From positions 10,509-74,508 of the forward strand of contig JAGAKK010000030.1 of assembly GCA_017625675.1 (NCBI GenBank): a stretch of 64,000 nucleotides of DNA, written 5' to 3'. This DNA is from Clostridia bacterium. GTDB lineage: Bacteria; Bacillota; Clostridia; UBA1212. Numbering within the stretch: the first letter of the stretch is position 1; every line of letters begins with the position of its first letter. The notes beneath the pieces are model-generated. The model worked only from the letters and a program-made list of their open reading frames with translations. It was not told where the DNA came from and searched no databases. A program made the position numbers and the translations under genes. This document shows positions 29,612 to 44,852 of the stretch, piece after piece.

Positions 29612-29642
29612 TTTAAAGTGAATGTATAAGGAGGATTGTGTC

Positions 29643-31424
29643 GTGAAACGAAACGATATTGATTCAAAATATAAATGGAAGCTTGAGGACCTTTATTCTG
29701 ATGATGACTTGTGGGAGAGAGATTTTCGGGAGCTGTCAGAGGGTGTGTCCGAAATTGAAGAGCTTAAAGGTACTGCGTCTGCGTCTGCAGATTCTTTGAT
29801 GAACCTGTTGGTGAAGTTTGAAAACTTTTCAAAGAAATTTGAAAAGTTGTTTGTATATGCGAGAATGAGGCTTGACGAGGATAACGGCAATGCGAAATAT
29901 CAGGATATGGCGGCCAGAGCTGAATTCCTTCTTGCAGACTTTTCGGCCAGAACCTCTTTTATTGAGCCGGAGCTTTCTTCGATTTCCGAAGAGGAAATTA
30001 ATAAGTTTATGAGCGATAATGAAGCGCTCAGATTGTATGAGTTTGATTTCAAGGAGAGACTCCGTAGAAAAAAATACGTGCTTTCCGAGAAGGAAGAGCG
30101 CATATTGGCCCTTGCGGCAGAGACCTGTAATGCCTCTGCGGATGCGTTCAGAAAATTCAATAATGCTGATATAAAGTTTCCTTGCATAAAAAATGAGCAG
30201 GGTGAAAAAGTGCAATTGACCCACGGCAGCTACGCTCTTTTCCTTGACAGCAAGGACAGGAACGTCAGAAAAAATGCGTTTAAGGGTATATACAGCGCAT
30301 ACAGGGCGTATCAGAACACCCTGGCATCTATGTACTCCGGACAGGTGAAGAGCGATTGCTTTGTTGCTTCGTCAAGGGGCTATGAGAGCTGTCTCGTTGC
30401 ATCTCTGGATGATGACAATATTGCCGCAGACGTTTATAATAACCTTATCGACGTGGTTAATGCGAATATACCTGCGTTGACGAAATATCTGAAGTTAAGG
30501 AAAAAAGCATTGGGGGTAAGGTCGCTCCATTTGTATGATCTTTATACTCCCATGATTGAAGTGCCTGAGAAAAAGTATTCCTTCGAAGAGGGCTGGGCTC
30601 TTGTGAAAGAGGCGATTAAGCCTATGGGAGAGGAGTATTGTAATATTGCATCCAGGGCCTTTGAGGAGGGCTGGATTGATGTGTACGAGACGGAAGGGAA
30701 GACCACCGGCGCGTATGCCTGGGGCTGTTACGGAAATCATCCGTACATCCTGCTTAACTGGCAAGGTACCTTTGACGATGTGTTTACCCTTGCTCATGAG
30801 CTTGGACACGCTATGCATACTTATTACAGCAATTCCGCTCAGCCGTATAATTACGCAGGCTACAAGATTTTTGTGGCAGAGGTTGCTTCTACTGTCAATG
30901 AAAATCTCCTTGTGGAATATCTGATGAACAATACGGATGACGAGAAAGAGAAGGCGTATATATTAAATCACTATCTGGAGGCTTTCCGCCTTACGATAAT
31001 CAGACAGACTATGTTTGCCGAGTTTGAGCGTGACGTGCATGCAATGGCGGAAAAGGGACAGCCTCTTACCTGCAAGGTTTTGTGTGACACATATTATGCG
31101 TTGAACGTTAAGTATTTTGGCGCGGCGGCTAACGTGGACAGGGACATTGAGCTTGAATGGTCCAGAATTCCGCACTTCTATACGCCCTTTTACGTGTACA
31201 AGTATGCCACAGGTTTTTCTGCGGCTGTTGTGCTTGCGGGAAATATCTTGTCGGGCGACAGTGAAAAGCGCGAGAGATATATTGATTTTCTCAGAAGTGG
31301 CGGCAGTGATTATCCTTTGGAAATATTGAAAAAAGCCGGTGTTGATCTTACGTCTTCTGAGCCTGTTGAAAGAGCGATGAAGTTGTTCTCGGAGAAAATA
31401 GATCAGTTGGGAAAATATATGTGA
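29643..31424 (+). CDS. pepF: Oligoendopeptidase F (M3B)
   Basis: W.LEDLY, GK.TGAY, TLAHELGHAMH, AEVAS, WSRIPHFY.PFYVYKYATG; GTG after AAGGAGG. Confidence 0.93.
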   Translation: MKRNDIDSKYKWKLEDLYSDDDLWERDFRELSEGVSEIEELKGTASASADSLMNLLVKFENFSKKFEKLFVYARMRLDEDNGNAKYQDMAARAEFLLADFSARTSFIEPELSSISEEEINKFMSDNEALRLYEFDFKERLRRKKYVLSEKEERILALAAETCNASADAFRKFNNADIKFPCIKNEQGEKVQLTHGSYALFLDSKDRNVRKNAFKGIYSAYRAYQNTLASMYSGQVKSDCFVASSRGYESCLVASLDDDNIAADVYNNLIDVVNANIPALTKYLKLRKKALGVRSLHLYDLYTPMIEVPEKKYSFEEGWALVKEAIKPMGEEYCNIASRAFEEGWIDVYETEGKTTGAYAWGCYGNHPYILLNWQGTFDDVFTLAHELGHAMHTYYSNSAQPYNYAGYKIFVAEVASTVNENLLVEYLMNNTDDEKEKAYILNHYLEAFRLTIIRQTMFAEFERDVHAMAEKGQPLTCKVLCDTYYALNVKYFGAAANVDRDIELEWSRIPHFYTPFYVYKYATGFSAAVVLAGNILSGDSEKRERYIDFLRSGGSDYPLEILKKAGVDLTSSEPVERAMKLFSEKIDQLGKYM

Positions 31425-31443
31425 ATATGTGAAATGAATTGAG

Positions 31444-32223
31444 GTGCGCAGGGTATTGTTTGGCGACAGAAAGATAGGCTTCGGCTTCGGTGGCATAGAA
31501 GAGGGTGCTTTTAAGCGTTCCTTTGACGGTACCGTAATCGACGGCGTTGACAAAATCGAAGAAAACGTTTTGCTGGATGATTTGTGTGTCTCCGGTCGCG
31601 CAGTATTCCTGGGCGAGGTGGATGCAGACAGAGTGGTTATTCCGGGCTCTGCGGAGTTCAGGGAATTTACTACCTGCGATGATTTTCACGTGTCGGGAAG
31701 CGCGCTGGTAAAGGGTGAGTTTGTGTGTGAAAGCCTTGTGGTGCAAGGCGAAGCAAGAACTCTTGATACTCTTCATTCTGACCTTATTATCGTGGAGGGG
31801 TATCTTAAATCCAGCCGAAAGGTGAAAACGATAAACCTGAACGTTGACGGTACTTTCGAGTGCTCCGGAAGAGTCTTTGCGGATGAAATAAAGACCGGCG
31901 GAAGACTTCTGGCGCTGGGTGAAATGAAGTGCTTTGAACTGGATATTGAATCCGGAAAAGAAAGTATTGTGGGACGACTGCAGGCGGATACTCTCAGAGT
32001 GAAAAACAGTTTGCCCTCTGAGACGGAGTACGTTCTCAATTGCGATTACGCAGATTGCGGAACGGTGGATATTGAATATGCAAAAATTGATTGCCTCAGA
32101 TGTGATCAGTGTAGGATTGGCAAGGGTTGTGTCATAGGAAAACTTGATTGCCGGGAAGAGGCAGAGATATCGCCCGATGCTGTGGTTGAACAGTATGAGG
32201 GTAAAAAAACGGAGGTGCTTTAA
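31444..32223 (+). CDS. Bactofilin-like polymer-forming cytoskeletal protein (YhbE/YhbF type)
   Basis: ~17-aa periodic 'v.G' beta-helix repeats; C-terminal IG.GC.I...ISPDAVV. Confidence 0.72.
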   Translation: MRRVLFGDRKIGFGFGGIEEGAFKRSFDGTVIDGVDKIEENVLLDDLCVSGRAVFLGEVDADRVVIPGSAEFREFTTCDDFHVSGSALVKGEFVCESLVVQGEARTLDTLHSDLIIVEGYLKSSRKVKTINLNVDGTFECSGRVFADEIKTGGRLLALGEMKCFELDIESGKESIVGRLQADTLRVKNSLPSETEYVLNCDYADCGTVDIEYAKIDCLRCDQCRIGKGCVIGKLDCREEAEISPDAVVEQYEGKKTEVL

Positions 32224-32226
32224 TTC

Positions 32227-34575
32227 GTGGAAACAGGAAATAAAAAGAGTTTCTTCAAGCCCGAAAATAAGTGGGACTATATAAAGCTTATCGCAGCGAC
32301 ACTGGCTGTGATATTGGTTTTTGTTATAGTTACTGCTGCCGCATTAAGCACAAGGGACGTGTTTTCGGAGGATTTTAACAGCGGAAAGCATGATTTTGAT
32401 ACAAGTTATAAAGCCGCCGGGAACACCGTTTTCAGCGTCAGTCAGAATCTTGGAATGGACGGGTCAAAGTGTCTTGTTATTGAAAACAGTGCCCAGAGCG
32501 ATGCAAGTTATACGAGAGATATATATTTGCAGGCAAGACGTCATTACAGAGTGACAGGTTACGTAAGAACGGAAAACATCAACGGCTCAGGCGCTGTGGG
32601 TGCATCTATTCAGGTAAAGAAAATGTCAAAAGGCTCCGGCGAAACGGCTGATACTATACTTGCCTCTCAGAATGCCAACGTGACGAGCGGTGCGTGGACC
32701 AAGGTGGTAATAAACCTTCCCGAAACCGATATGAGCCACACGTACCAACTGGTGCTTCGGCTTGGCGGTGTTGAAGACGGCGCTACGGCAGGCAAGGCGT
32801 ATTTTGACAACATTACCGTTGAAAAGATCTCTGCCCTTGACGGAGGTACTTTTGATGACGTGAGAATTCTTTCCTGCATTATCGTGGTGCTGATGCTTTT
32901 TGTATTCTTCGTTGCGTACAGTTATTCAAAAAAATATGAAATCAATGACGGAAAGAGCATTCTGGCTCAGCCGGCAGGCGGTGCCGTTAACGTTACTACT
33001 GCGGTGGTGATTTTGTTTGCGGCGGCGTTTATGCTCCGTATCTTCTTGTCAGTTACCTATTATCAATGTGATATTGACGTCAATCTGTTCAAGTCATGGG
33101 GTGACGTTGCATACAATAAGGGCCTCACAAACGTCTATAAAGAGCTTGGGGCCAATATCGATTATCCGCCTATCGTCGTGTACTTCTTGTGGTTTGCTTC
33201 TGCGGTGGAGAATACTTTCGGAAAATTGTTCGGACTGGGTCACGAGTACGTTCATACAATTTTCGTGAAATTGCCTTCAATGCTTTGCGATATGGCTATC
33301 GGATACGTTATTTATAAGTATGCAAAGAAATACGGTGCGTCAACGGAATGGAGTCTTTTCTTTACGGCACTGTGGCTCTTTAATCCCTTGTCACTTATTG
33401 ACGCCTCCTGTTGGGGTCAGGTTGACTCTATGCTTACGTTGGCGGTTATTCTGAGCATTATTTATCTTAATAAAAAGAAATACCTTATTGCCGGAATCTG
33501 GTTCGGAGTGGGCGTGGTGCTTAAACCGCAGATGTTCTTCTTCCTGCCTGTTTTCGGGTATATGTGGCTTAAAGACGTAATTGAAGACAAGAACGCAATG
33601 AAGGCAGTGAAGAGTTTTTTCGCATCTGTGGGAGGCGCTCTGGCAGGTGTGATTATACCCTGTATACCTTACCTTCACATGGGCTTTGAAAAAGTTGAAT
33701 TGTTTGGAAAAAGCGTAAAGCTTCCTTGGATATTCTCACTGTTTATCGGAACGGCCAACCATTATGAGTATGCGTCCGTAAACAGCTACAACTTCTGGTT
33801 TTTATCAGGAAAGAACTGGGTGGAGGACAAGACGACTCTTCTTGAAGCTGCGCTGAGCGCTGAAAAGCCAAGTCAGCTCTGGATAAACATTCTCTCCAAA
33901 ACACCCCTTGGTGACATCAGCCTTTTTGCTATAGGAATTACGTTTATTGTAATAATAAGCCTTGTGACCTTGTATTTTGCGATAAGGCTTAAAAAAGGAG
34001 AGCACTTGCCTTATCTTCTTTCTGCGTTTATGTTTGCGGCGGTACCTTTCTTTGCGCCAAGAATGCACGAGAGATACTTTTTCCCTGCGCTGGCATTGCT
34101 TATTATTGCCCTTGTGATATATAACAAGCCCCTTTTGCTTTTGCCTGCAGGACTTCTCAGTGCGTCAGGATTCCTTATCGTTACGGACGTTCTGATGGGC
34201 CTTTCTGTGGGAGGAAATCTTAAAAATCTCGGAAAAGATTATGCGGAGTACAGCGATTATTATTGGCCTGCTCACGCGTCAATTCCGGACAGATACAGAA
34301 TGCTTCTTTCATTGTTGATGCTTTTTGCAGTGCTTACGATATGGGCGATAATGATATTTGCAGAAATTGATGAAAAATCCAAAGCAAATATTTTAGGCGG
34401 AAAGATTTACAATGAGGTAAAAAAAGAACCTCAGGTTTCCGGAAAAGGCGGAACTAAGGAAACAACTTCTTTGCCGGGAATTGTGCCTGAAAATTATGAT
34501 AATATTGAGATCGTTGTTGAAAACGTCGAAACGGCAGACGTTTCTGAGAGAAGAGAAAGGGGAGAAGTACAATGA
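32227..34575 (+). CDS. GT-C fold polytopic membrane glycosyltransferase with a CBM4_9-like extracellular domain
   Basis: D...F..W, DYPP, KLP....D, FNP.....WGQ.D, KPQ, SVN.YNFW, MHERY; beta-sandwich domain ending YFDNITV. Confidence 0.78.
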   Translation: METGNKKSFFKPENKWDYIKLIAATLAVILVFVIVTAAALSTRDVFSEDFNSGKHDFDTSYKAAGNTVFSVSQNLGMDGSKCLVIENSAQSDASYTRDIYLQARRHYRVTGYVRTENINGSGAVGASIQVKKMSKGSGETADTILASQNANVTSGAWTKVVINLPETDMSHTYQLVLRLGGVEDGATAGKAYFDNITVEKISALDGGTFDDVRILSCIIVVLMLFVFFVAYSYSKKYEINDGKSILAQPAGGAVNVTTAVVILFAAAFMLRIFLSVTYYQCDIDVNLFKSWGDVAYNKGLTNVYKELGANIDYPPIVVYFLWFASAVENTFGKLFGLGHEYVHTIFVKLPSMLCDMAIGYVIYKYAKKYGASTEWSLFFTALWLFNPLSLIDASCWGQVDSMLTLAVILSIIYLNKKKYLIAGIWFGVGVVLKPQMFFFLPVFGYMWLKDVIEDKNAMKAVKSFFASVGGALAGVIIPCIPYLHMGFEKVELFGKSVKLPWIFSLFIGTANHYEYASVNSYNFWFLSGKNWVEDKTTLLEAALSAEKPSQLWINILSKTPLGDISLFAIGITFIVIISLVTLYFAIRLKKGEHLPYLLSAFMFAAVPFFAPRMHERYFFPALALLIIALVIYNKPLLLLPAGLLSASGFLIVTDVLMGLSVGGNLKNLGKDYAEYSDYYWPAHASIPDRYRMLLSLLMLFAVLTIWAIMIFAEIDEKSKANILGGKIYNEVKKEPQVSGKGGTKETTSLPGIVPENYDNIEIVVENVETADVSERRERGEVQ

Positions 34576-37100
34576 AAAATATCAATATCCCCTTTAAAAC
34601 TAAGATTAAAAAATATTTAAAAACTCTGGTATGTCTTGCAATTATAGTTTTTACCTTGATCGGATGTGCAGGCTGTTCCGGCACAGGAACGTATTCCTTT
34701 GAAAGAGGAAACTCAAAAAAAGTTACCGGCTGGAAAACCTACAATTATCAGGCTGAAAACAATAACAAACTGAGTATCACGAAGATTTCAATTGTGTCAG
34801 GCGGATACAAGGGAAAGGCTCTTAAAATCTCAAGCTCCGAAAATAATGATGCCCGTGTGTATAAGCAGATTTCGGTAAAAGAAAAGTCTGTGTATGAGAT
34901 CAGCGTTATGGTGAAAACTGAAAACGTTGAGGGCGGACACGGCGCAAATATTTCCGGATACAACTGCTATACAGGCCACTCTGAGCCGGTAACGGGTACA
35001 ACAGAAGGCTGGGTAAAGCAGACGATTTACGTAAAAACCGATGAAGGACAGAAGAAAATAAATCTCAGCCTCGGATTGGGTGGCTACAGCAACGAGTCAA
35101 AGGGTACGGCATATTTTGATGAGCTGTCTGTTAAAAAGGTATCTGCCGTTCCTGAAGGCGCAACAGCAATCAGACTGGTGGAGAGGACAGACACCGAAAA
35201 GAAGGACACTGAGGTAAGCATCTGGCTGAAGCTTCTCTTCGTTATCGCTATCGTAGGCGTATTCGTGTATTGCCTTGGGCTTACTGTTGCCAATGATAAA
35301 TACAATGCAAAGATGAAAAAGTCCCTTACCGATGTTCCCGGAAAGCCTGACAAGAGAGATGCCATAATAATGGCGGCAATGACGGTGCTTTGCGCTGTAT
35401 TCTCCTTCGTTCATCTGGGAAGCGTAAGAGGCTGTCCTGAGAATTATTGGAAGGCAGGAGCTGCCGAAGAGTATGTTACCGTTCATTTTAAAGAAAAGAC
35501 CACCGTTTCAAGGGTTGCTTATTATTCAGGTATCCCGTCATCAACGGGAAAATATTCAATTCAGTATCTCACTCCCGACGGAAAGTATCTTGAGGCAACT
35601 GCCCTTAATGCGAGTGAGGACAATGAATATACTGATTTCTTTAAATGGGACTATAAAAACGTTGAATTTACTACGGACGCTGTGAGAGTATACGTTGATG
35701 CTCCCGGATTCTGGCTTAACGAGCTTGGCTTCTACTCCAAAAATTCAAAGGGAGAATACGTCAAGGTGGAGCTTGATATAGGTTCTATTGAAACAAGCTA
35801 TAAGGAAACGAAAACCTCCGGCAAGGCTGAAAATCTTTTTGATGAGCAGAAAGATGTATGCGCCCAGAGGACGTTTATGAATTCTACGTATTTTGATGAG
35901 ATTTACCACCCCAGAACGGCCTACGAGCATCTGCACGGTCTTAGTATTTACGAGTGGACTCATCCGCCTTTGGGAAAGACAATTATTTCCATTGGTATTG
36001 CCATTTTCGGTATGAATACGCTGGGCTGGCGCTTTATGGGTACACTGTTTGGTGTGTTGCTGGTGCCTCTTATGTACGCCTTTGCAAAGAAGGTGTTTAA
36101 AAAGAGTGAGTGGGCATTCTTCGTGTCATTCCTTATGATGTTTGACTTTATGAGGTTGTCCCAGACGAGACTTGCAACTATTGATACCTATGCATGCTTC
36201 TTTACCCTTGCAATGATGTTCTTTATGTACGACTATTTTGTACAAAAGTCCTACGATATACCTGAGAAAAAGGCAATGCTTTCTCTTGCGCTCTCCGGTC
36301 TGATGTTTGGCTTGGGCGCTGCAAGTAAATGGACTTGTCTTTACACAGGAGCAGGACTTGCAATAATTTTCTTCATTGCAAAAATAGCTGAATTTATTGA
36401 TTGTTACAAAAAAAGAGGGCCTTCTAAGCTTACCGCAGAAAAATATTTCACAAATAACTTTATTTTTACTTGCGGAATGTGTATACTATTCTTTGTAATG
36501 ATACCTGTTGGTATTTACGTGCTGTCATATATTCCGTATATGGCATCCAAGCCGGGACAGGATCTGCTTGATATTGTTATAGCTAATCAGAAGGATATGT
36601 ATAACTATCACAGCGATCTTACTTCGTCTCATACTTACGGCGCGGAGTGGTACACATGGCCTTTCTCTACGTACAATATTTTCTACTTTAACGGTGATGC
36701 AGGAGAGTCCGTAGCCAGAGTAATGACTATGGGAAATCCTCTCGTATGGTGGCTTGGCATTCCTTGCTTTATCGCTTCACTGTATTTTGCGTGGAGAAAT
36801 CGTGACAAGCGTATGGGCTTCTTTGCCGTTGCATATATTATGCAGTTTGCGCCCTGGTTTATGGTAAATCGTGTGTGCTACATCTATCATTACTTTACGT
36901 GCGTTCCGTTTACTATGTTTATGATTGCGTACGTGTTTAAGGAACTGGTTGATAAAAAGATCATACCGAAATGGAGCGTATGGCTGTACATGATATTGGT
37001 TCTGATAGTGTTTATAATGTTCTATCCTGCATTGATGGGATTATCTACTACTGCCGGAAAGATTGATTCTCTCAAGTGGCTTTCCACCTGGAGCTTCTGA
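34572..37100 (+). CDS. PMT/GT39-like protein O-glycosyltransferase with a CBM4_9-like and a second extracellular domain
   Basis: YFDEIYH, EWTHPPLGK, GWRF, TR.A.ID, KW, YH..L...H.Y...W.TWP, GNP..WW, YIYHY; possible lipobox near C32/C35. Confidence 0.85.
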   Translation: MKNINIPFKTKIKKYLKTLVCLAIIVFTLIGCAGCSGTGTYSFERGNSKKVTGWKTYNYQAENNNKLSITKISIVSGGYKGKALKISSSENNDARVYKQISVKEKSVYEISVMVKTENVEGGHGANISGYNCYTGHSEPVTGTTEGWVKQTIYVKTDEGQKKINLSLGLGGYSNESKGTAYFDELSVKKVSAVPEGATAIRLVERTDTEKKDTEVSIWLKLLFVIAIVGVFVYCLGLTVANDKYNAKMKKSLTDVPGKPDKRDAIIMAAMTVLCAVFSFVHLGSVRGCPENYWKAGAAEEYVTVHFKEKTTVSRVAYYSGIPSSTGKYSIQYLTPDGKYLEATALNASEDNEYTDFFKWDYKNVEFTTDAVRVYVDAPGFWLNELGFYSKNSKGEYVKVELDIGSIETSYKETKTSGKAENLFDEQKDVCAQRTFMNSTYFDEIYHPRTAYEHLHGLSIYEWTHPPLGKTIISIGIAIFGMNTLGWRFMGTLFGVLLVPLMYAFAKKVFKKSEWAFFVSFLMMFDFMRLSQTRLATIDTYACFFTLAMMFFMYDYFVQKSYDIPEKKAMLSLALSGLMFGLGAASKWTCLYTGAGLAIIFFIAKIAEFIDCYKKRGPSKLTAEKYFTNNFIFTCGMCILFFVMIPVGIYVLSYIPYMASKPGQDLLDIVIANQKDMYNYHSDLTSSHTYGAEWYTWPFSTYNIFYFNGDAGESVARVMTMGNPLVWWLGIPCFIASLYFAWRNRDKRMGFFAVAYIMQFAPWFMVNRVCYIYHYFTCVPFTMFMIAYVFKELVDKKIIPKWSVWLYMILVLIVFIMFYPALMGLSTTAGKIDSLKWLSTWSF

Positions 37101-37132
37101 CGGCCGGACGAATTTGAAAGGGGTTTATACTA

Positions 37133-38257
37133 ATGCAAGCATCAGATTTTGTAAAAGCAACCGGTTGTACTTTCTTTACCGGTGTGCCGGATTCACAGCT
37201 TAAAGGTCTTTGTGACTATCTCTACGACAATAAGGGTATTTCGAAAGACCATATTATTGCCGCTAATGAAGGAAATGCCACTGCTCTTGCAGCAGGCTAT
37301 TATATGGCCACAGGCAAGCTTCCTCTTGTATATATGCAAAACAGCGGTATCGGAAATATTATCAATCCCGTTGCATCACTTCTTAATGATAAGGTGTATG
37401 CGATTCCTTGCCTTTTCGTTGTGGGCTGGAGAGGAGAGCCCGGTGTCAAGGACGAGCCTCAGCATATTTATCAGGGCGAGGTTACAGTAAAGCTTCTTGA
37501 GGATATGGATATTGTTACTTGCATTATCGACAAGGAAACTACCGCAGAGGATATTGAGGCTAAAATTAAGGAATGGGCTCCTGTTTTTGAGCAGGGAAAG
37601 AGCGCTGCATTCGTAGTGAGAAAGGGTGCTCTCAGTTATGACGGAAAGCCTGTTTATAAAAATGATTACGCTATGACCCGTGAGCATGTGATTGAGCTTA
37701 TCACAAAGGCTGCAGGGGACGATATTATCGTGTCTACTACAGGAAAGGCATCAAGAGAGCTTTTTGAGATAAGAGAGCGGGCAGGAGAGACACACAGTCA
37801 CGATTTCCTTACCGTAGGTTCAATGGGACACAGCTCTTCCATTGCGCTTAGCATTGCGCTTAATAAGCCCGGTAGCCGTGTGTGGTGTATTGACGGTGAC
37901 GGAAGTCTTCTTATGCACCTTGGAGCAGCTGCAGTGATGGGTGCCAACGCGCCTGAAAATATGGTACATATCGTTATTAATAACGGTGCTCACGAGACTG
38001 TAGGCGGAATGCCAACTGTTTCTGAAAAAATTGACGTTGTTAAAATCGCAGAGGGCTGCGGATACAAGAAAGCGGTGTCCGTTGACAACGAAAGCGATCT
38101 TATAAAAATCCTTGATGAGGTAAAGAAGGGAACTGATTGCCTTACTCTTATTGAGATAAAAGCGGCTCTCGGTTCAAGAGCAGATCTTGGCCGTCCCACT
38201 CTTACCGCAAGACAAAACGTAGAAAATTTCATGAATTATCTGAAGGAGAAAAACTGA
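37133..38257 (+). CDS. aepY: Phosphonopyruvate decarboxylase
   Basis: FTGVPDS.LK, AANEG, YMQNSG.GN, WRGEPG..DEPQH, TVGSMGH, DGDG TPP motif, LGRP. Confidence 0.93.
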   Translation: MQASDFVKATGCTFFTGVPDSQLKGLCDYLYDNKGISKDHIIAANEGNATALAAGYYMATGKLPLVYMQNSGIGNIINPVASLLNDKVYAIPCLFVVGWRGEPGVKDEPQHIYQGEVTVKLLEDMDIVTCIIDKETTAEDIEAKIKEWAPVFEQGKSAAFVVRKGALSYDGKPVYKNDYAMTREHVIELITKAAGDDIIVSTTGKASRELFEIRERAGETHSHDFLTVGSMGHSSSIALSIALNKPGSRVWCIDGDGSLLMHLGAAAVMGANAPENMVHIVINNGAHETVGGMPTVSEKIDVVKIAEGCGYKKAVSVDNESDLIKILDEVKKGTDCLTLIEIKAALGSRADLGRPTLTARQNVENFMNYLKEKN

Positions 38258-38259
38258 AC

Positions 38260-40272
38260 ATGAAGGCATTGATTTTAAATTCCGGTGTTGGAAAAAGAAT
38301 GGGTGTTCTCACAAGTGAGCATCCCAAGTGTATGACAGAGGTAAACAGCAAGGACACTATTTTAAGCCGTCAGCTTAAGATGCTTGTTGATTTCGGTGTA
38401 GAAGAGGTAGTAATGACTACAGGTCTTTTCGATCAGGTTCTCATTAATTATTGCCACTCATTGGAGCTTCCTTTGAAGTATACTTTTATTAATAACCCTG
38501 TTTACGACAAGACTAATTATATTTATTCAATCTACTGTGCAAAGGATCATCTTAAAGACGAAGATATCATTATGATGCACGGCGATCTTGTTTTTGAAAA
38601 TCGCGTAATGGAGATGCTTCTTGATTCTGAGAAGAGCTGCATGACTGTCAGCTCCACCGCAGAGCTTCCCGAAAAGGATTTCAAGGCAGTTGTAATTGAC
38701 GGAAAGATTCAGAAAGTAGGTATTGAATTCTTCAACGATGCTATGGCGGCACAGCCCCTCTATAAGCTTAACAAAGAGGATTGGAACGCATGGCTTGAAG
38801 AGATCTGTGCATTCTGTGAGAAGGACGACGTAAAGTGCTATGCAGAGAATGCTTTCAATGAAGTTTCTGACAAGTGCAACGTTTATCCTCTTGACGTAGA
38901 GAATATGCTCTGCAACGAGATTGATACACCTGAGGACCTTGCAGCTGTTTCTGCAAAGCTTCGTGAAACACTTAACAGAACAGTTTATATGTGCTTCTCT
39001 ACGGATATTCTCCACAGCGGTCACATTGCCCTTATCAGAAAGGCAGAACGCCTTGGCAAACTCATTATCGGTGTAATGACGGATGAGGCCGTTGCAAGCT
39101 TCAAGCGTTTCCCTCTCGTTCCTTTTGAGGAGAGAAAGGTTCTTTTTGAAAATCTCAGCGGAGTTTATAAGGTTGTTGCGCAGGATTCACTCAGCTATGC
39201 AGAGAACCTTCGTAAATATCGTCCTACATACGTAGTTCACGGAGACGATTGGTGCACCGGCTTCCAGAAGCCTGTTCGTGACGAGGTGGCATCCGTTCTT
39301 GCAGAGTACGGCGGACGCATTATCGAGTATCCTTATTCAAAGGACGCAAAGTTTGATCAGCTTGAGAGAGAATCAAGCACCAGACTTTCTATGCCTGACG
39401 TAAGAAGAGGCAGACTTAGAAGACTCCTTTCTCTTAAGCCTACCGTTTCTGTTCTTGAGGCGCACAGCGGTATTACAGGACTTATTGCAGAGAAAACCAC
39501 AGTTTATCAGGACGGAAAAGCATACCAGTTTGATGCAATGTGGGTTTCTTCTCTCTGTGACTCTACAGCAAAGGGTAAGCCTGACATTGAGCTTGTGGAT
39601 ATGTCCAGCAGACTTCGTACTATTGATGATATTATGGAAGTTACAACAAAGCCTATTATCCTTGACGGCGATACAGGCGGACTTACAGAGCATTTTGTTT
39701 ACAACGTAAAGACTTTGGAGAGAATGGGTGTGTCCGCAGTAATTATTGAGGACAAGACAGGCCTTAAGAAAAATTCACTTTTCGGAACAGAGGTTGCCCA
39801 GACTCAGGACACAATAGAGAATTTCTGCTATAAGATTTCTTCAGGTAAGGCAGCTCAGAATACAAAGGAATTCATGATTATTGCCAGAATCGAGAGCCTT
39901 ATTCTTGAGCAGGGTATGGAGGATGCGCTTACAAGAGCTTTCGCATACGTTGAGGCAGGCGCTGACGGAATTATGATCCACAGCCGCAAGAAGTCTCCTG
40001 ATGAGATTTTTGAGTTTGTGGAGAAGTTCCGAGCAAAAGATTCACAGACACCTATCGTTGTTGTCCCTACTTCATTCAACACTGTTACTGAGGAGGAATT
40101 TGCAAAGAGAGGCGTAAATATCGTTATTTATGCAAACCAGCTCACAAGAAGCGGTTTCCCTGCAATGCAAAACGTTGCTACGACCATTCTCACAAACCAC
40201 AGAGCAAAGGAAGCAGACGATATGTGTATGTCAATTAAAGAAATTCTTACACTTATCCCTGCAGATTATTGA
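38260..40272 (+). CDS. aepX: PEP mutase fused to two nucleotidyltransferase domains
   Basis: N-terminal LNSG.GKRM...HPK (LicC/PntC-like NTP transferase); middle DILHSGH cytidylyltransferase; C-terminal PepM with EDKTGLKKNS (EDKx5NS). Confidence 0.93.
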   Translation: MKALILNSGVGKRMGVLTSEHPKCMTEVNSKDTILSRQLKMLVDFGVEEVVMTTGLFDQVLINYCHSLELPLKYTFINNPVYDKTNYIYSIYCAKDHLKDEDIIMMHGDLVFENRVMEMLLDSEKSCMTVSSTAELPEKDFKAVVIDGKIQKVGIEFFNDAMAAQPLYKLNKEDWNAWLEEICAFCEKDDVKCYAENAFNEVSDKCNVYPLDVENMLCNEIDTPEDLAAVSAKLRETLNRTVYMCFSTDILHSGHIALIRKAERLGKLIIGVMTDEAVASFKRFPLVPFEERKVLFENLSGVYKVVAQDSLSYAENLRKYRPTYVVHGDDWCTGFQKPVRDEVASVLAEYGGRIIEYPYSKDAKFDQLERESSTRLSMPDVRRGRLRRLLSLKPTVSVLEAHSGITGLIAEKTTVYQDGKAYQFDAMWVSSLCDSTAKGKPDIELVDMSSRLRTIDDIMEVTTKPIILDGDTGGLTEHFVYNVKTLERMGVSAVIIEDKTGLKKNSLFGTEVAQTQDTIENFCYKISSGKAAQNTKEFMIIARIESLILEQGMEDALTRAFAYVEAGADGIMIHSRKKSPDEIFEFVEKFRAKDSQTPIVVVPTSFNTVTEEEFAKRGVNIVIYANQLTRSGFPAMQNVATTILTNHRAKEADDMCMSIKEILTLIPADY

Positions 40273-40286
40273 TAAAGGAAAAAATT

Positions 40287-41387
40287 ATGTCTCAGATAAT
40301 TATTAACGGAAAAGGCGCTTTGCATAAAATTGAAGAAGTTCTTAGGGAGCTTGGAAGCAAGAAGGTGCTTCTCGTTTGTGACGGCGCTTTCCCCTACCTT
40401 CCTGTAAAGGACTTTTTTGACAATATGTCGGTGCCCGTTGTAAAGTTCAACGAGTTTACTGTTAACCCTCTTTATGAGGACGTCTGCAAGGGCGTTGACC
40501 TCTTTAATAGAGAAGGTTGTGACGTAATAATTGCCGTAGGCGGCGGAAGCTCCATTGACGTGGCGAAATGCATAAAGCTTTTTGCCAAAATGGACCCTTC
40601 GGAGAACTATCTCAAGCAGGAGTTTAAGGAAAACGGCATCAAGCTGATTGCACTTCCTACCACAGCCGGTACGGGCAGCGAATCCGCTCGCTATGCGGTG
40701 ATTTATTACAAGGGCGAGAAGCAGTCCGTGGCTGACCTTTCCATTATTCCGGACTATGCAGTTTTAGAGAGCAGTGTGTTGTTGACACTTCCGGAATATC
40801 AGAAGAAATGCACGTTCCTTGACGCTCTTTGTCAGGCAATAGAGTCCTGGTGGTCCGTAAACTCTACTGTGGAGAGTCATGAATACTCTAAATTTGCGAT
40901 CAAGGGATTGCTTGATAATTTAGACGATTATCTTAATAAACCCTCAGAAAGCGTTCTGGAGGCCGTTATGACTGCAGCAAATTTTGCAGGCCGTGCGATT
41001 AACGTTACTCAGACCACGGCGGCTCACGCAATGAGTTACAAGTTGACCTCACTTTATCATTTGCCTCACGGACATTCTGTGGCAATTTGCCTTCCCGGAG
41101 TGTGGCGTTATATGATAAACAATATTGAGAAATGTATTGACCCCAGAGGTTCAGCTTATCTGGCTGGCGTTTTTGAGGATATTGCCAAGGCGTTGGGTGC
41201 GGAATCTCCTGTAGCTGCTGTTGAAAAATTTGCCGGAATTATTAAGGGTCTTGGCATTGATGCTCCCGTTATTCCGGAGAAGGATATTGAAGTGCTTGGT
41301 GCTTCCGTAAATCCGGTAAGACTTAAAAACAATCCTGTTGCTCTTACGGAAGAAGTGCTTAAGCAGATGTACAGAGAGCTTGTCTGA
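40287..41387 (+). CDS. Phosphonoacetaldehyde reductase (group III Fe-containing alcohol dehydrogenase)
   Basis: GGGSSID.AK, PTTAGTGSE, DALCQAIES.WSVNS, TTAAHA.SY, PHG; context next to aepXY. Confidence 0.85.
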   Translation: MSQIIINGKGALHKIEEVLRELGSKKVLLVCDGAFPYLPVKDFFDNMSVPVVKFNEFTVNPLYEDVCKGVDLFNREGCDVIIAVGGGSSIDVAKCIKLFAKMDPSENYLKQEFKENGIKLIALPTTAGTGSESARYAVIYYKGEKQSVADLSIIPDYAVLESSVLLTLPEYQKKCTFLDALCQAIESWWSVNSTVESHEYSKFAIKGLLDNLDDYLNKPSESVLEAVMTAANFAGRAINVTQTTAAHAMSYKLTSLYHLPHGHSVAICLPGVWRYMINNIEKCIDPRGSAYLAGVFEDIAKALGAESPVAAVEKFAGIIKGLGIDAPVIPEKDIEVLGASVNPVRLKNNPVALTEEVLKQMYRELV

Positions 41388-41433
41388 AATTAAGTAAATT
41401 GATTAAGTTTATTAATTGTGAAAGGAGAAGAAT

Positions 41434-42384
41434 ATGGGTGTAGTATGTTCCGTTGTAGTCCCCGTGTTTAATGAAGAAGAGGTAATCAATGAGACCTATA
41501 AAAGGCTTACCGAGGTTATGCAGAGTACGGGTGAGTCCTATGAAATTATTTTTGTAAACGATGGAAGTCGTGATAAAACCGCCCTTCTTGCAAGGGAAAT
41601 ATGCAAAAATGATTCTAACGTAAAGCTCATTGACTTTTCCAGAAACTTCGGACACCAGACCGCCATTACAGCCGGTATGGATCACGCTTGCGGAGATGCA
41701 GTGGTGGTAATTGACGCAGATCTTCAGGATCCTCCGGAGGTTATTCTTGATATGCTTAAAAAGTGGCGTGAAGGCTACGATATTGTTTACGGACAACGCA
41801 TTAAAAGAGAAGGCGAGACAATATTTAAAAAGCTTACCGCTAAGGTGTTTTACAGATTTTTGCGCAGTATGACAGAGGTTGACATTCCTGTTGATACAGG
41901 GGATTTCAGGCTTATTGACAGAAAAGTTTGCGATGCCATGAAAACGATTTCCGAAAGAAATCGTTACGTGAGAGGTATTGTGAGCTGGCTGGGCTTTAAG
42001 AGCGCGCCGGTGGAGTTTGAGCGAAAGAAACGCTTTGCAGGTACTACCAAGTATCCTTTGAAGAAGATGATAAAATTTGCTACAGATGCTATAATGTCAT
42101 TTTCCTACAAGCCCCTTAAAATTGCCACGTTTTTCGGTAGTTTTGTTTCTGTTTTCAGCTTTATCGGACTTATCGTTATGATAATACTTAAGCTTTGCGG
42201 AATAGGTGAGTATGTGGACGGCTGGACGTCCCTTGCAGTAATCTCTCTTTTCCTTAACGGTATCGTTCTGATGATCTTAGGAATTATCGGTGAATATATC
42301 GGCAGAATTTATGACGAGGCAAAGGACAGACCTTTATACGTAATTCGTGAGGTTGTAAATTTCACTGAGGAAAACGTAAAATAA
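41434..42384 (+). CDS. GtrB/DPM1-like GT2 polyprenyl-phosphate glycosyltransferase
   Basis: VVP.FNEE, NDGS.D, SRNFGH, DADLQDPP, GDFRL, two C-terminal TM helices, GEYIGRIY. Confidence 0.92.
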   Translation: MGVVCSVVVPVFNEEEVINETYKRLTEVMQSTGESYEIIFVNDGSRDKTALLAREICKNDSNVKLIDFSRNFGHQTAITAGMDHACGDAVVVIDADLQDPPEVILDMLKKWREGYDIVYGQRIKREGETIFKKLTAKVFYRFLRSMTEVDIPVDTGDFRLIDRKVCDAMKTISERNRYVRGIVSWLGFKSAPVEFERKKRFAGTTKYPLKKMIKFATDAIMSFSYKPLKIATFFGSFVSVFSFIGLIVMIILKLCGIGEYVDGWTSLAVISLFLNGIVLMILGIIGEYIGRIYDEAKDRPLYVIREVVNFTEENVK

Positions 42385-42404: not shown

Positions 42405-42446
42405 CACCGTCGATTTTGGAAATTCCATTATCGACGGTGCTTTTTT
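42405..42446. terminator. Bidirectional terminator
   Basis: caccgtcgat...atcgacggtg followed by a T run, with an A run upstream. Confidence 0.8.
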
Positions 42447-42464
42447 ATGCTTTTGAAATTTTAA

Positions 42465-44852
42465 TTAATGCTTTTTCTTCTTCAAGAAAATAACTGCTGT
42501 TGACAATACTGCAATTACTGATAAGGAATTAAGAACGTTTGAACATCCTGAAACCTCAACTGTAACCTTGTCATCATCGCCTTTTGTAGCAGACTGGGTT
42601 GCAGGGGTGGTGGCAACAGGTGTCTGGGCATTCGCTTCGTCTGTAGAAGCAGGTGTTTCAGGGACGTCTGCAGTATTAGTCGCATCACCTGTAGGCGCTG
42701 TTGTTTCTGTAACGCCGGCTGTGGAAGATGCGTCGGGAAGGGCCGTTTCTGATGCGTCCGGAAGCGTTGTTTCATTCGGGATGTCAGTGCTTGTTCCGGG
42801 TGTTCCCGCTGTAGAAGTAGCAGTGCTTGTGGCAGTAGGCTTTGCCGTTACCTTATTCGTAGCAGAAGAAGTAGGCTTGTTTGTAGGCGCTGTTGTAGGC
42901 GTAGCTGTGGGTCTTTGTGTAGGAGCAGGCGTTGCTGTAGCAGTCGTCTGGCTTTCTCCGCTGAAAGTTTTTGCAAGAGCATCTGCTTCAGAGGAGGTCT
43001 TTGCAAAGCCCCAGTTGCTTATCTGAACGTTATCGCCTGTGCTTACGCTTCCTTCAAAGAAGTCAAGACGGATGCTGGATAGGTTGCCGGTCCAGGAAGA
43101 AAGCTTTGAGAGATCCACAACCTTTGTGTGCCATTGATCATCCCTCGTCATCGCAAAGCTTGTGGTACTTGATTCCACGGGAGATACGGTATTGCCTGCG
43201 CATAAATACATTTTGAACGTGCCTGTTTTTGCACCGCTGTTTGTTTTGTAGCGGAGAACTATGTATTTATACTGAGATGCATTCACTTTAGATGCTGCGG
43301 AACTGAAGTTGAAATATACGTAAGGATCTGAACTTGCAGAAATAGCCTTAAGTTTCAAAATTCCGTTAGAGATAGTAGCAGATGCATTATTTGCTCCTGA
43401 AAAGCTTGATTTTATATTTGACGTAAATTTCACGTTGAAGGGATCAAATCTTTCGGGAACTGAAATGTGAGAAAGAGAGCCTTGGGAGGAAACCGAAGGT
43501 GTGGGGTCGTATACAAGAGCAATTGAGTTCCACACCTTTCTCGGAGCGCCGTCTGAATAGCATGCTCTTTCTGTATAGCTGCCTGCGTTTATGGTAACCA
43601 TTGTGGTAGAGCCGCCACCGTCAAGAAGGAAGCAGGTATTGTAGCCAACTTCCTGAGCGAAGGAGATCATCTGTGAGAATTTAAGTCCTTGATACTTTCC
43701 GTTTACATCTGCTGTAATCATGCTGAGCATTACCGTGCCATCGTCTTTAAATCCGATAATACTTGTTGGGTAGTTGCTTGTGTTTGTGTTAAGGTTTGTT
43801 TCATAAGGCACGCCATCCTTTAATAACATCATGTGCCCGCCGATAGCCTCTTCGCACTTCGCCCAGAGGTCGTTGTTCTTGCTCCATGTGTCGTAAAGGG
43901 ATGCTGTAACTGAAACCTTGTCGCCTATTGCAAAATTATTCTGAAGCTCGCTGATTCTGGAGTCTCTGGCTGTAATTACAAGATAGCCGGACTGAAGGGC
44001 GTGCCTTGAAGTGGCGCCGCTTTCGTAGATAGCCTCTACCGTTCCCGTGACAGCGGTATTGTGAGTGAATTTATTCGTACCGCTTGTTTTTATGAGAATC
44101 TCGTATGCATCTTTGGGAACTGCATTCGTATTGCTGAGACGCTCGTTGTAAACCACCAGAGAATTATTGGCAGGGGCTCTGTTAAGGCCGTCTGTGGTAA
44201 TTTCTTTTCCGCTGTTGGTGTTCTTTAAAGTAACTTTAGCCTTAAGCATACCGATAACGGGCTGATTAGATGAAGTGATACCGAAAGAGTAGGGTCCGTC
44301 GTAAGGTGTTTCCTTTACGGTAAGCTCACTGCACCAGATTTCCTTGTCGATAATGGTAACGCCGGTAGTTACACGGTAATTTGAGGTAACTTCGATGCTT
44401 CCCATCTCCGTGGAATTAACCCAGTGCATCCAGTCTCCGTTTACTGCTGCAAGAATCGTTTTGTCTCCTTCGGAGTAGGATTTCACCACGTCGGTAAGAT
44501 AACTGGAACCTCTTATATAGTCGCCGCCGTCTACGGAGCTTTTGTGATTAATAACCTCAAAAGAAAGCTTCGTATTTGAAAGGTCAGCCTCAACGATATT
44601 AATGTATCTTCCGTATGAGGAACCTGCCGCATAGCCGGAGCCTGCTTTAAGGTGTACTCTTGTAAAGTCTGCGCCGGTGTCAGTGCTTCCTACTTTAAGC
44701 GCAGAGGCGGTGTTTGAGTCCTGTCCTGCAAACTCGTATCCCTGAGCCTGCACCTTCGTATTTCCCAAGGGGATGAAAAGAGAGATGCCCAAAGATACGG
44801 CGCACAAAAAAGAAACTCCTTTTTTTAATTGATTTTTCATCATCTGTGTCAA
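42465..44852 (-). CDS. Secreted phosphodiester glycosidase (NAGPA-like) family protein with a Thr/Pro-rich stalk and C-terminal anchor
   Basis: Signal peptide; AAVNGD, P...IG...DG, LDGGGSTTM, R.V.N; T/A/P-rich linker; GC-TM-KKKK tail. Confidence 0.78.
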   Translation of the reverse strand: MTQMMKNQLKKGVSFLCAVSLGISLFIPLGNTKVQAQGYEFAGQDSNTASALKVGSTDTGADFTRVHLKAGSGYAAGSSYGRYINIVEADLSNTKLSFEVINHKSSVDGGDYIRGSSYLTDVVKSYSEGDKTILAAVNGDWMHWVNSTEMGSIEVTSNYRVTTGVTIIDKEIWCSELTVKETPYDGPYSFGITSSNQPVIGMLKAKVTLKNTNSGKEITTDGLNRAPANNSLVVYNERLSNTNAVPKDAYEILIKTSGTNKFTHNTAVTGTVEAIYESGATSRHALQSGYLVITARDSRISELQNNFAIGDKVSVTASLYDTWSKNNDLWAKCEEAIGGHMMLLKDGVPYETNLNTNTSNYPTSIIGFKDDGTVMLSMITADVNGKYQGLKFSQMISFAQEVGYNTCFLLDGGGSTTMVTINAGSYTERACYSDGAPRKVWNSIALVYDPTPSVSSQGSLSHISVPERFDPFNVKFTSNIKSSFSGANNASATISNGILKLKAISASSDPYVYFNFSSAASKVNASQYKYIVLRYKTNSGAKTGTFKMYLCAGNTVSPVESSTTSFAMTRDDQWHTKVVDLSKLSSWTGNLSSIRLDFFEGSVSTGDNVQISNWGFAKTSSEADALAKTFSGESQTTATATPAPTQRPTATPTTAPTNKPTSSATNKVTAKPTATSTATSTAGTPGTSTDIPNETTLPDASETALPDASSTAGVTETTAPTGDATNTADVPETPASTDEANAQTPVATTPATQSATKGDDDKVTVEVSGCSNVLNSLSVIAVLSTAVIFLKKKKH

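Follow-up and report, generated by a model that had tools for sequence, protein, structure and literature searches.

We analysed a stretch of 64,000 nucleotides (the window; positions are counted from its first letter) of contig JAGAKK010000030.1, which belongs to a metagenome-assembled genome (G000, GCA_017625675.1; 1.65 Mb, 76% complete) of an uncultured, rumen-type member of the Clostridia. At 29622-42384, eight genes follow one another on the forward strand with spacers of 19, 3, -4, 32, 2, -4 and 46 bp: pepF, a gene for a bactofilin-like protein, a GT-C glycosyltransferase (GTC1), a GT39/PMT-like glycosyltransferase, phosphonopyruvate decarboxylase (Ppd), a fusion protein with a phosphoenolpyruvate (PEP) mutase domain, an iron-dependent alcohol dehydrogenase (Fe-ADH) and a GtrB-type glycosyltransferase of family GT2 (Table 1). 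Because the spacer between the GT39 and GtrB genes is only about 50 bp elsewhere, we read the window as carrying a three-gene cassette (37133-41387), predicted to make cytidine monophosphate (CMP)-activated 2-hydroxyethylphosphonate (HEP), that was inserted into a membrane glycosyltransferase operon.

An earlier note on this DNA, drawn up from the letters alone, had described a HEP pathway embedded in a protein O-glycosylation operon of six co-oriented genes (32227-42384, all on the forward strand, spacings of -4, +32, +2, -4 and +46 bp) ending at one terminator. The reading frames lie as it described, overlapping or less than 50 bp apart, and its family assignments hold by profile and solved-structure matches. 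The six-gene core stands and the operon's start does not, with pepF and the bactofilin-like gene upstream of it; similarly, the gene called aepX does encode a PEP mutase, though as part of a tri-domain fusion rather than as a simple enzyme. The operon ends at a hairpin with a perfect stem (42405-42414 paired with 42430-42439) in an 80-bp spacer between convergent genes; with a run of A before it and a run of T after it, it could serve either strand. A consensus terminator scan with a loop limit of 8 did not flag this hairpin because its 15-nt loop exceeds that limit, and the same scan flagged no terminator-like site in either of the spacers that flank the cassette.

The adjacency of cassette and glycosyltransferase genes is not an assembly artefact, since DNA contigs from other runs, one of them from another study, bridge both cassette junctions: the GT39-Ppd junction is spanned in X2 (record 2) and X8 (record 29, the other study), and the ADH-GT2 junction in X6 (record 23) and X2 (record 6). 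The one RNA library with this stretch (X20, share 0.05) yielded eight short contigs of 36-263 bases, which fall in pepF, the pepF/bactofilin junction, the bactofilin-like gene, GT39, Ppd, the mutase and ADH, and none of which spans a cassette junction by 31 letters; we take X20 as no evidence of co-transcription, because contigs cannot show transcription and the library may contain DNA.

Table 1. Features of the operon in the window. Bit scores are given against the model's cut-off where there is one; the three domain rows belong to the fusion protein above them.
Feature	Position	Strand	Basis
pepF (oligoendopeptidase F), first gene of the operon	29622..31424	+	TIGR00181 656 bits vs cut-off 490
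Bactofilin-like cytoplasmic protein, 259 aa	31444..32223	+	PF04519 32.7 bits vs cut-off 27.9
GT-C glycosyltransferase GTC1, 782 aa	32227..34575	+	Alg6_Alg8 38.4, GT87 26.9 bits
GT39/PMT-like glycosyltransferase, 842 aa	34572..37100	+	PMT 60.4, PMT_4TMC 83.1, PMT_2 40.8 bits
Ppd (phosphonopyruvate decarboxylase), first cassette gene	37133..38257	+	TIGR03297 446.8 bits vs cut-off 312.5
Tri-domain PEP mutase fusion, 670 aa	38260..40272	+	Three domains below
LicC/PntC-like nucleotidyltransferase domain, aa 1-230	38260..38949	+	NTP_transf_3 (PF12804) 33.6 bits vs 27
Fom1-type cytidylyltransferase domain, aa 233-364	38956..39351	+	CTP_transf_like (PF01467) 46.5 bits vs 21
PEP mutase domain, aa 386-668, including stop codon	39415..40272	+	TIGR02320 417.5 bits vs 319.55
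Group III Fe-alcohol dehydrogenase, last cassette gene	40269..41387	+	Fe-ADH 133.6 bits
GtrB-type polyprenyl-phosphate hexosyltransferase (GT2), last gene of the operon	41434..42384	+	Solved GtrB sll0501 (5ekp), E 6.7e-94
Hairpin terminator	42405..42447	both (no strand)	10-bp stem, 15-nt loop, six T; read by eye

Core operon and inserted cassette

The glycosyltransferase genes are far more widely distributed than the phosphonate genes beside them. Named relatives in a genome scan are labelled as uncultured Clostridia of rumen-type samples, 'Mageeibacillus sp. UBA1212/UBA1243', 'uncultured Ruminococcus sp.' and 'Christensenella sp. UBA6094'. Among 46 genomes of the order, all 46 have a GT39 orthologue of the same architecture (most at E <1e-200), nearly always with a GT-C gene immediately upstream; just 12/46 have a PEP mutase, leaving 34/46 with GT39 and without it. 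We examined 12 GT39 loci of other genera and families. Neither Ppd nor PEP mutase occurs at any of them, and at six (L042, L043, L045, L046, L052 and L053) GT39 is followed directly by a GtrB gene whose product is 67-79% identical to that of the window. The whole series pepF-bactofilin-GTC1-GT39-GtrB is contiguous in five of these six, L043 being identical minus the bactofilin gene. More broadly, pepF is syntenic with the glycosyltransferase genes in G001, from the window's genus (g1), and at 9/12 of the other-lineage loci, and a bactofilin homologue stands directly upstream of GT-C in G001, at six loci of a second genus (g2) and at 10/12 of the other-lineage loci. In a distant genome (L033:9851-14143) GT-C and GT39 are fused into one protein of 1286 aa and a GtrA-type gene comes next; the fusion speaks for the two enzymes acting jointly. 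Judged by this gene order, pepF-bactofilin-GT-C-GT39-GtrB is a core operon of the whole Clostridia order. The earlier note had held that its reading would be refuted if relatives carried the glycosyltransferase genes contiguously without aep genes and if the linkage did not recur: the first is what we found at six of the 12 loci, and the second is true outside one clade, within which the linkage recurs in nine genomes of two genera.

Those nine genomes, in which GT39 and the mutase gene are adjacent, are G000 and G001 (g1) and G002, G004, G006, G007, G008, G010 and G011 (g2); the two genes are unlinked in G005, G009 and G038. When 87 tri-domain proteins are placed on a tree, all linked copies fall on one side of a branch, and their nearest rows outside it are six metagenome loci of the LicD or polysaccharide type. 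The linked copies also have in common that Ppd precedes the mutase, an order seen at 0/72 metagenome loci with Ppd. In g2 the GFO-MacB genes, those that follow the operon in the window, have an ADH orthologue (46-50% identity) a few kb upstream, and because it retains this synteny we regard the g1 arrangement as the older. Together, the tree and the gene orders fit one insertion in the common ancestor of g1 and g2 with a later break-up in g2. Independent acquisition by g1 and g2, which would argue for coupling, is unsupported, as the tree allows one origin. The ADH orthologue near the GFO-MacB genes is seen at L039:7462-12213, L040 and L041 (G004, G006 and G007, respectively); in G004 and G006 it stands between a 687-aa protein of no clear family and a 460-aa glycoside-hydrolase-like protein, and G007 has the latter and lacks the former.

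Outside this clade the cassette keeps other company. At least 524 metagenome relatives of the tri-domain enzyme were confirmed, and we examined the best 80 (72-75% identity, loci L054-L133): both Ppd and Fe-ADH accompany the enzyme at 69/80, and Wzx/Wzy/GT4-type genes occur at 16/80. The LicD and polysaccharide genes that stand beside ppm in classical phosphonoglycan or Pnt clusters are absent from the window; they are present in G038, a member of another family of the order whose cassette lies in a Wzx/Wzy/GT4 polysaccharide locus with two LicD genes, and LicD is found at 26/80 of the metagenome loci. By its distribution, the cassette is a mobile module whose usual partner is LicD.

Two further genomes differ. 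In G005, from the same family as the window, a locus on contig C6 (L022:7861-15097) holds a stand-alone PEP mutase and Ppd, a 594-aa nucleotidyltransferase-Fe-ADH fusion, a CDP-alcohol phosphatidyltransferase, a B12-binding radical-SAM enzyme and an acyltransferase; it looks like a phosphonolipid-like cluster, perhaps with Fom3-like methylation of CMP-HEP. In G009, a g2 genome, the tri-domain copy (L018:6034-8040, L051) is a foreign one by the tree and adjoins genes for UDP-glucose dehydrogenase and for an ABC exporter, Ppd being on a third contig. Facing the operon in the window itself is a convergent gene (42465-44852, reverse strand) for a protein of 795 aa that includes a NAGPA (phosphodiester glycosidase) domain, has paralogues on contigs C52, C44, C41, C47, C55 and C87 of G000 (best 50% identity, C52) and is not found next to the operon in other families; a link between this putative glycosidase and phosphodiester- or phosphonate-linked surface sugars is conceivable.

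Enzymes of the cassette and of the core operon

The fusion protein joins two nucleotidyltransferase domains to the mutase. The first matches solved LicC (1jyk, E 6.8e-8) and PntC (6pd1, E 4.1e-5) over their full length, and its GxGxR residues (G9, G11 and R13) are invariant in eight orthologues. HxGH is the signature of Fom1-type (PF01467) cytidylyltransferases, and the second domain has it in H252, G254 and H255, likewise invariant in eight orthologues; residues 241-364 match the cytidylyltransferase (CyTase) domain of solved Fom1 (5x3d) at E 7.8e-38. The mutase domain carries the motif EDKXXXXXNS at E497-S506, again invariant in the eight, which according to the main text of Rice et al. 2019 (PMC6697681) sets PEP mutase (Ppm) apart from the rest of the isocitrate lyase family. 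By the same text, roughly 60% of Ppm enzymes have a nucleotidyltransferase fused to them and 2.9% have both kinds; it also describes the Fom1 domain as making CMP-HEP in fosfomycin biosynthesis (PMC6697681).

The other two cassette genes complete a pathway. Ppd passes its equivalog model and also matches TPP_enzyme_N and TPP_enzyme_C. The context of Fe-ADH, homologues of which stand beside PEP mutase and Ppd in G001 and G038, are fused to a nucleotidyltransferase domain in G005 and occur at 72/80 of the metagenome loci, is strong, and from it we infer a phosphonoacetaldehyde reductase. A search of five genomes of the set, three of them 97-98% complete, with the model for the 2-aminoethylphosphonate (AEP) transaminase PhnW/AepZ (TIGR03301) gave at best 48.2 bits vs 360.8. 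The mutase domain would convert PEP to phosphonopyruvate, Ppd would convert this to phosphonoacetaldehyde, Fe-ADH would convert that to HEP, and the Fom1-like domain, possibly with the LicC/PntC-like domain as well, would activate it. Since a Fom1-like fusion is joined by Ppd and an Fe-ADH following the PEP mutase, with no transaminase above cut-off in any of the five genomes, the encoded product is predicted to be CMP-HEP; the earlier expectation of HEP rather than AEP is borne out to that extent.

The core glycosyltransferases are less easily assigned to a substrate. GTC1 has an N-terminal transmembrane helix, then a domain resembling a carbohydrate-binding module (CBM_4_9, 23.4 bits, under the cut-off of 25.9) and then a polytopic GT-C module that weakly matches solved GPI mannosyltransferase 1. 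GT39 begins with an extension of about 430 aa made up of a transmembrane helix, a CBM-like domain and a discoidin-like domain (F5_F8_type_C, 22.4 bits, under cut-off); its catalytic part passes both PMT (60.4 bits vs 22.7) and PMT_4TMC (83.1 vs 32.4), and matches solved Pmt4 (9e61) at E 4.9e-6. An acidic pair in the first outside loop is a hallmark of GT39 protein O-mannosyltransferases, and here D442-E443, like H464-K469, is invariant across eight orthologues. GT39 nevertheless fails the curated equivalog of actinobacterial Pmt (NF058602, 86.9 bits vs 800). A GT39 enzyme with CBM-like and discoidin-like N-termini, teamed with a bactofilin-like protein, appears to be uncharacterised.

GT2 matches solved GtrB over aa 4-307, its full length, and its visible C-terminal hydrophobic segments correspond to two transmembrane helices. 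Its best curated match is PgfS, at 294.5 bits below an equivalog cut-off of 500, and it also fails the ArnC equivalog (187.7 bits vs 529); because both cut-offs are missed, we do not assign the sugar of GtrB. As to acceptors, GT39 homology and the streptococcal GtrB/GT-C precedents discussed below favour protein by analogy, and the sub-threshold CBM-like and discoidin-like N-termini would favour a glycan or be neutral. A scan of G000 for stretches rich in Thr and Ser found a rich 30-aa window in 18/2820 frames, four of them long proteins (608-819 aa) with Thr/Pro-rich linkers, which suggests that candidate acceptors could exist in G000 and is silent on glycosylation.

A LicD candidate, the proposed route and its rivals

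No candidate phosphonyl transferase is seen in the window. Apart from the operon and its neighbour the window is housekeeping (uvrBA, clpB, argJ, whiA, ftsK, priA, def-fmt, rlmN, stp/pknB), the LicD, wzx and wzy families matched none of the 42 window reading frames scanned, and the earlier observation that no LicD-, Stealth- or TagF-type gene is visible there stands. Its remark that capsule genes are missing holds for the window and fails for the genome, in which contig C41 carries a Wzx-like locus. It had also called the transferase step unlinked or the work of an unexpected enzyme, and suggested a genome search for LicD-family enzymes. That search found a single LicD, on contig C78 (9039-9890), in an operon metG-LicD-GT87a-GT87b-HAD-HAD, so with LicD as the transferase the step would indeed be unlinked; the puzzle shrinks, as the fusion itself encodes CMP activation. 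LicD has an orthologue in 10/10 genomes of g1 and g2, and the GT87 pair is present in 12/12 genomes of the window's family vs 0/34 elsewhere in the order. No phosphonate-specific family was matched near LicD (PhnX-like, 42.7 bits vs 218.9), and the first HAD protein scores highest on phosphoglycolate phosphatase models. By gene content, the LicD operon is a second case, in this family, of a head-group gene with two GT-C enzymes and without Wzx/Wzy, and we infer that LicD is the best candidate for transferring HEP from CMP-HEP. The two GT87-like GT-C enzymes at this locus (L034, G000:C78:9039-14886) are paralogues of each other.

Other transferase families gave less. TagF-type enzymes occur in 0/5 genomes; among the same five, Stealth is found only in G000, in the separate exopolysaccharide locus on C41 (L136, G000:C41:38117-47990), which holds a Wzx-like flippase, Stealth, a CMP-sugar synthetase (CTP_transf_3), a Polysacc_synt_2 dehydratase, a GT10 fucosyltransferase and two acyltransferases. 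CDP-OH_P_transf genes are present in the usual one or two copies and look housekeeping-like. In G003 the LicD orthologue closest to that of G000 (45% identity; contig C6, L023:5056-7728) lies beside a 601-aa fusion of NTP_transf_3 with a class I/II aminotransferase fold. G003 is without PEP mutase and Ppd, and its fusion may be a different, possibly amino-alcohol-phosphate, head-group module; because this LicD adjoins a different head-group gene, one transferase with swapped head groups is suggested.

We propose, with a probability of about one half, that CMP-HEP decorates a surface glycoconjugate through LicD, a protein O-glycan being a possible target. GtrB would load a hexose onto undecaprenyl phosphate, and on the outer side of the membrane the two GT-C-fold enzymes of the core operon would pass this hexose to proteins or to a glycopolymer of the wall. 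Once the cassette had entered the spacer between GT39 and GtrB in the ancestor of the two genera, the single LicD would transfer the phosphonyl group, in the cytoplasm, from CMP-HEP to a lipid-linked sugar, and GT-C enzymes would deliver the decorated sugar to the cell-surface glycoconjugate. The sequence itself shows the gene identities, the fusion, the insertion with its distribution and the correctness of the assembly; the enzymatic steps are predicted from established enzymology of the families, and the LicD transfer and delivery by GT-C enzymes from gene context. As CMP-HEP is found in the cytoplasm and the sugars used by GT-C enzymes are polyprenyl-monophosphate-linked, the GtrB product would be the only cytoplasmic intermediate of such a route. 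We know of no precedent for LicD-type transfer onto a GtrB product, and for that reason the fully coupled version, in which LicD puts HEP on undecaprenyl-phosphate-hexose and GT39/GT-C (and/or the GT87 pair) exports HEP-hexose to Thr/Ser-rich linkers or a wall polymer, is in our view unlikely, and the proposal as a whole is rated no higher than even.

Several observations weigh against the proposal. LicD is unlinked to the cassette in G000, and among curated models it comes closest to Mf1, a Mycoplasma cholinephosphotransferase that acts on a glycolipid, at 87 bits vs 225. Every genome has further nucleotidyltransferases, from which LicD could be supplied with a different donor; the idea that the tri-domain enzyme is the sole feeder of LicD was rejected, scans with PF12804 and PF01467 giving 3-7 other matches per genome. 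Fe-ADH scores below the phosphonate-specific equivalog TIGR03405 (130.5 bits vs 423.7), other alcohol dehydrogenase models scoring equal to it or higher, and the second nucleotidyltransferase domain has no role assigned in the pathway. The linkage to the GT-C operon is a single evolutionary event. A synteny survey of aepX with GT39 and GT-C genes, which the earlier note had proposed, bears out the linkage in one clade and not beyond: GT39, GTC1, GT87, bactofilin or pepF genes lie beside the cassette at 0/80 metagenome loci (the top-scoring 80, not a random sample), and a PMT_2-family gene is nearby in 0/26 PEP-mutase-bearing Clostridia sampled class-wide (G149 and G399 not scored), the nearest such pair being 74 kb apart (G391). 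In g2, moreover, Fe-ADH and GtrB have moved away, GtrB to another contig, and G009 has lost Ppd and the mutase from its GT39 locus and has a foreign tri-domain copy elsewhere; with such losses after a single event, selection for physical coupling looks weak. The genome is also incomplete (76%).

Part of this would be expected if the cassette were hitch-hiking, borrowing the promoter of a constitutively expressed core operon while HEP goes to something unrelated, for instance what the LicD-GT87 operon makes or the C41 exopolysaccharide, which we consider possible at clearly less than even odds; GT-C, GT39 and GtrB would then work just as they do in relatives that have no phosphonate. Other families have the core operon intact, its genes contiguous and no cassette among them, the cassette's usual home is a LicD or polysaccharide locus, and G000 has its separate Wzx, Stealth and CMP-sugar locus; to this is added that g2 has split off Fe-ADH and GtrB and that G009 has unlinked everything and kept a phosphonate pathway. 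Against hitch-hiking, the GT39-Ppd-mutase adjacency has persisted in nine genomes down to about 50% GT39 identity, and a cassette inside the operon makes GtrB expression depend on read-through, the flanking spacers having no flagged terminator. As the linked placement is confined to close relatives, a functional link is plausible and unproven.

The specific claim of the earlier note, that GT39 uses the GtrB product to O-glycosylate Ser/Thr on surface proteins and that HEP decorates those O-glycans, seems to us doubtful. To our knowledge all characterised GT39 enzymes are protein O-mannosyltransferases, the cassette shares one predicted transcription unit with GT39 and GtrB, and at least four long frames with Thr/Pro-rich linkers could act as acceptors; that GtrB and GT-C enzymes glycosylate Ser/Thr-rich regions of membrane proteins in streptococci, as passages of PMC12041528 describe, is in its favour as well. 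It has to contend with a GT39 that falls far short of the actinobacterial Pmt equivalog, with carbohydrate-binding-like (sub-threshold) domains at the start of both GT-C enzymes and with a linkage that does not recur outside one clade. Further, LicD, the one candidate transferase that is conserved, keeps company with two GT-C enzymes other than these, and GT39 is built no differently in the 34 genomes that have no PEP mutase, which indicates no adaptation to phosphonate.

A phosphonolipid or phosphono-glycolipid, with CMP-HEP giving the head group of diacylglycerol or glycosyl-diacylglycerol, is improbable. Mf1, the best curated match of LicD, is a glycolipid enzyme (the match is far under cut-off), G005 combines PEP mutase, Ppd and the nucleotidyltransferase-ADH fusion with a CDP-alcohol phosphatidyltransferase and an acyltransferase, and phosphonolipid clusters with Ppm-fused PntC are common according to the main text of PMC8942020; neither of those lipid enzymes lies near the cassette or LicD in G000, and the G005-type CDP-alcohol phosphatidyltransferase is present at 0/80 metagenome loci. 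A secreted small molecule, with CMP-HEP a transient as in fosfomycin biosynthesis, is very improbable: the Fom1-like CyTase-mutase fusion, Ppd and Fe-ADH do match the first fosfomycin steps (main text of PMC6697681), but the operon has no radical-SAM methyltransferase, epoxidase, ATP-grasp enzyme, nonribosomal peptide synthetase or exporter, its neighbours are membrane glycosyltransferases, and relatives of the cassette reside in LicD, GT4 or Wzx loci.

Significance and comparison with known systems

The fate of CMP-activated phosphonates after their synthesis is called enigmatic in the abstract of PMC6697681. At this locus a common CMP-HEP cassette has left its usual LicD or polysaccharide home for a core GtrB/GT-C operon, and with a LicD that keeps company with two further GT-C enzymes the pair of loci is a candidate for a different route of phosphonate delivery to the surface. 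If the fully coupled version is true, it would be the first case in which GT-C enzymes, and not Wzx/Wzy- or ABC-type polysaccharide assembly, install a phosphonate decoration; if only hitch-hiking is at work, it is an ordinary gene insertion. The bactofilin-like/GT-C/GT39/GtrB envelope operon, universal in this order of rumen and gut Clostridia, itself appears uncharacterised. The tri-domain enzyme with Ppd and Fe-ADH is common in metagenome contigs from rumen, gut and fermentation (at least 524 stretches), which suggests that HEP decorations are widespread in those habitats, where HEP-bearing surface polymers may be a sizeable phosphatase-resistant pool of phosphorus. The earlier note knew of no characterised locus with this arrangement, and neither does the literature at main-text level, where we found nothing combining phosphonate, PEP mutase and O-mannosyltransferase; the main text of PMC8942020 has no mention of mannosyltransferase, PF02366, PF13231, LicD or Clostridia, and such a family might figure in the supplementary neighbourhood tables of PMC6697681 and PMC8942020.

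Should the acceptor in the fully coupled version be protein, bacteria would have their first phosphono-O-glycoproteins, a counterpart to mammalian dystroglycan with its logic of GT39, cytidylyltransferase and LicD-type enzyme. There, POMT1/2 (GT39), ISPD (a cytidylyltransferase) and fukutin/FKRP (LicD superfamily) build an O-mannosyl glycan, so that a GT39-initiated glycan receives a phosphodiester-linked alcohol from a CDP donor through a LicD-type enzyme. The likeness is an analogy only: that system belongs to eukaryotes, works in the lumen and employs ribitol phosphate rather than a phosphonate, and we imply no homology of pathway organisation. Actinobacterial protein O-mannosylation pairs a polyprenyl-phosphate-mannose synthase with Pmt (GT39). 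The window resembles it in having a GT2 and a GT39 that lacks MIR domains and conserves the Asp-Glu pair, and differs in the low NF058602 score, the N-terminal extension of GT39, a second GT-C that is sometimes fused and a bactofilin-like gene.

In Firmicutes, as passages of PMC12041528 describe, GtrB/PgtC2 and PgfS/PgfM1 act on Ser/Thr-rich regions of proteins and SccN supplies side chains of rhamnopolysaccharide; the shared scheme, a GtrB-type GT2 that makes undecaprenyl-phosphate-hexose and a GT-C that transfers it outside, encoded in the core genome, is the one we predict here. In the window the GT-C partners are GT39-like and Alg6/GT87-like with CBM-like N-termini, not of the YfhO type, there is no PgfE epimerase, and the streptococcal systems as presented there are without phosphonate. 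Set against the Pgf system of Streptococcus mutans (pgfS, pgfM1, pgfE and pgfM2), the operon has a GT2 with two GT-C genes and no epimerase, and its match to PgfS is under cut-off.

On the phosphonate side, Fom1 (CyTase-Ppm), Fom2 (Ppd) and FomC (Fe-ADH) of fosfomycin biosynthesis have the same four activities and end in CMP-HEP; the cassette has an extra LicC/PntC-like domain and no Fom3-type methyltransferase or epoxidase, and lies in an envelope operon of a Firmicute, not in an antibiotic cluster of Streptomyces. In Stackebrandtia nassauensis, as cited in PMC8942020, HEP is made via a PhpC-like Fe-ADH and conjugated to surface polysaccharide or exopolysaccharide; that actinomycete has a polysaccharide-cluster context like G038 and the metagenome loci, in contrast to the GT-C operon of the window. 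The Pnt pathway of Rice et al. 2019, in the main text of PMC6697681, likewise has a PEP mutase with EDKXXXXXNS fused to the PF12804 and PF01467 types, CMP activation for surface decoration and a LicD-like transferase as the proposed next step. It differs in its head group, characterised there as AEP and predicted here to be HEP (Fe-ADH and no transaminase), in the LicD that is missing from the cluster here, and in the GT-C/GT39/GtrB core-operon neighbours, which do not appear in the main-text passages of PMC6697681. The chemistry up to CMP-HEP, HEP on actinomycete exopolysaccharide and Firmicute glycosylation by GtrB and GT-C are thus already known; the novelty lies in a cassette that sits within a core GT39/GT-C/GtrB operon and in a LicD that is housed with GT-C enzymes.

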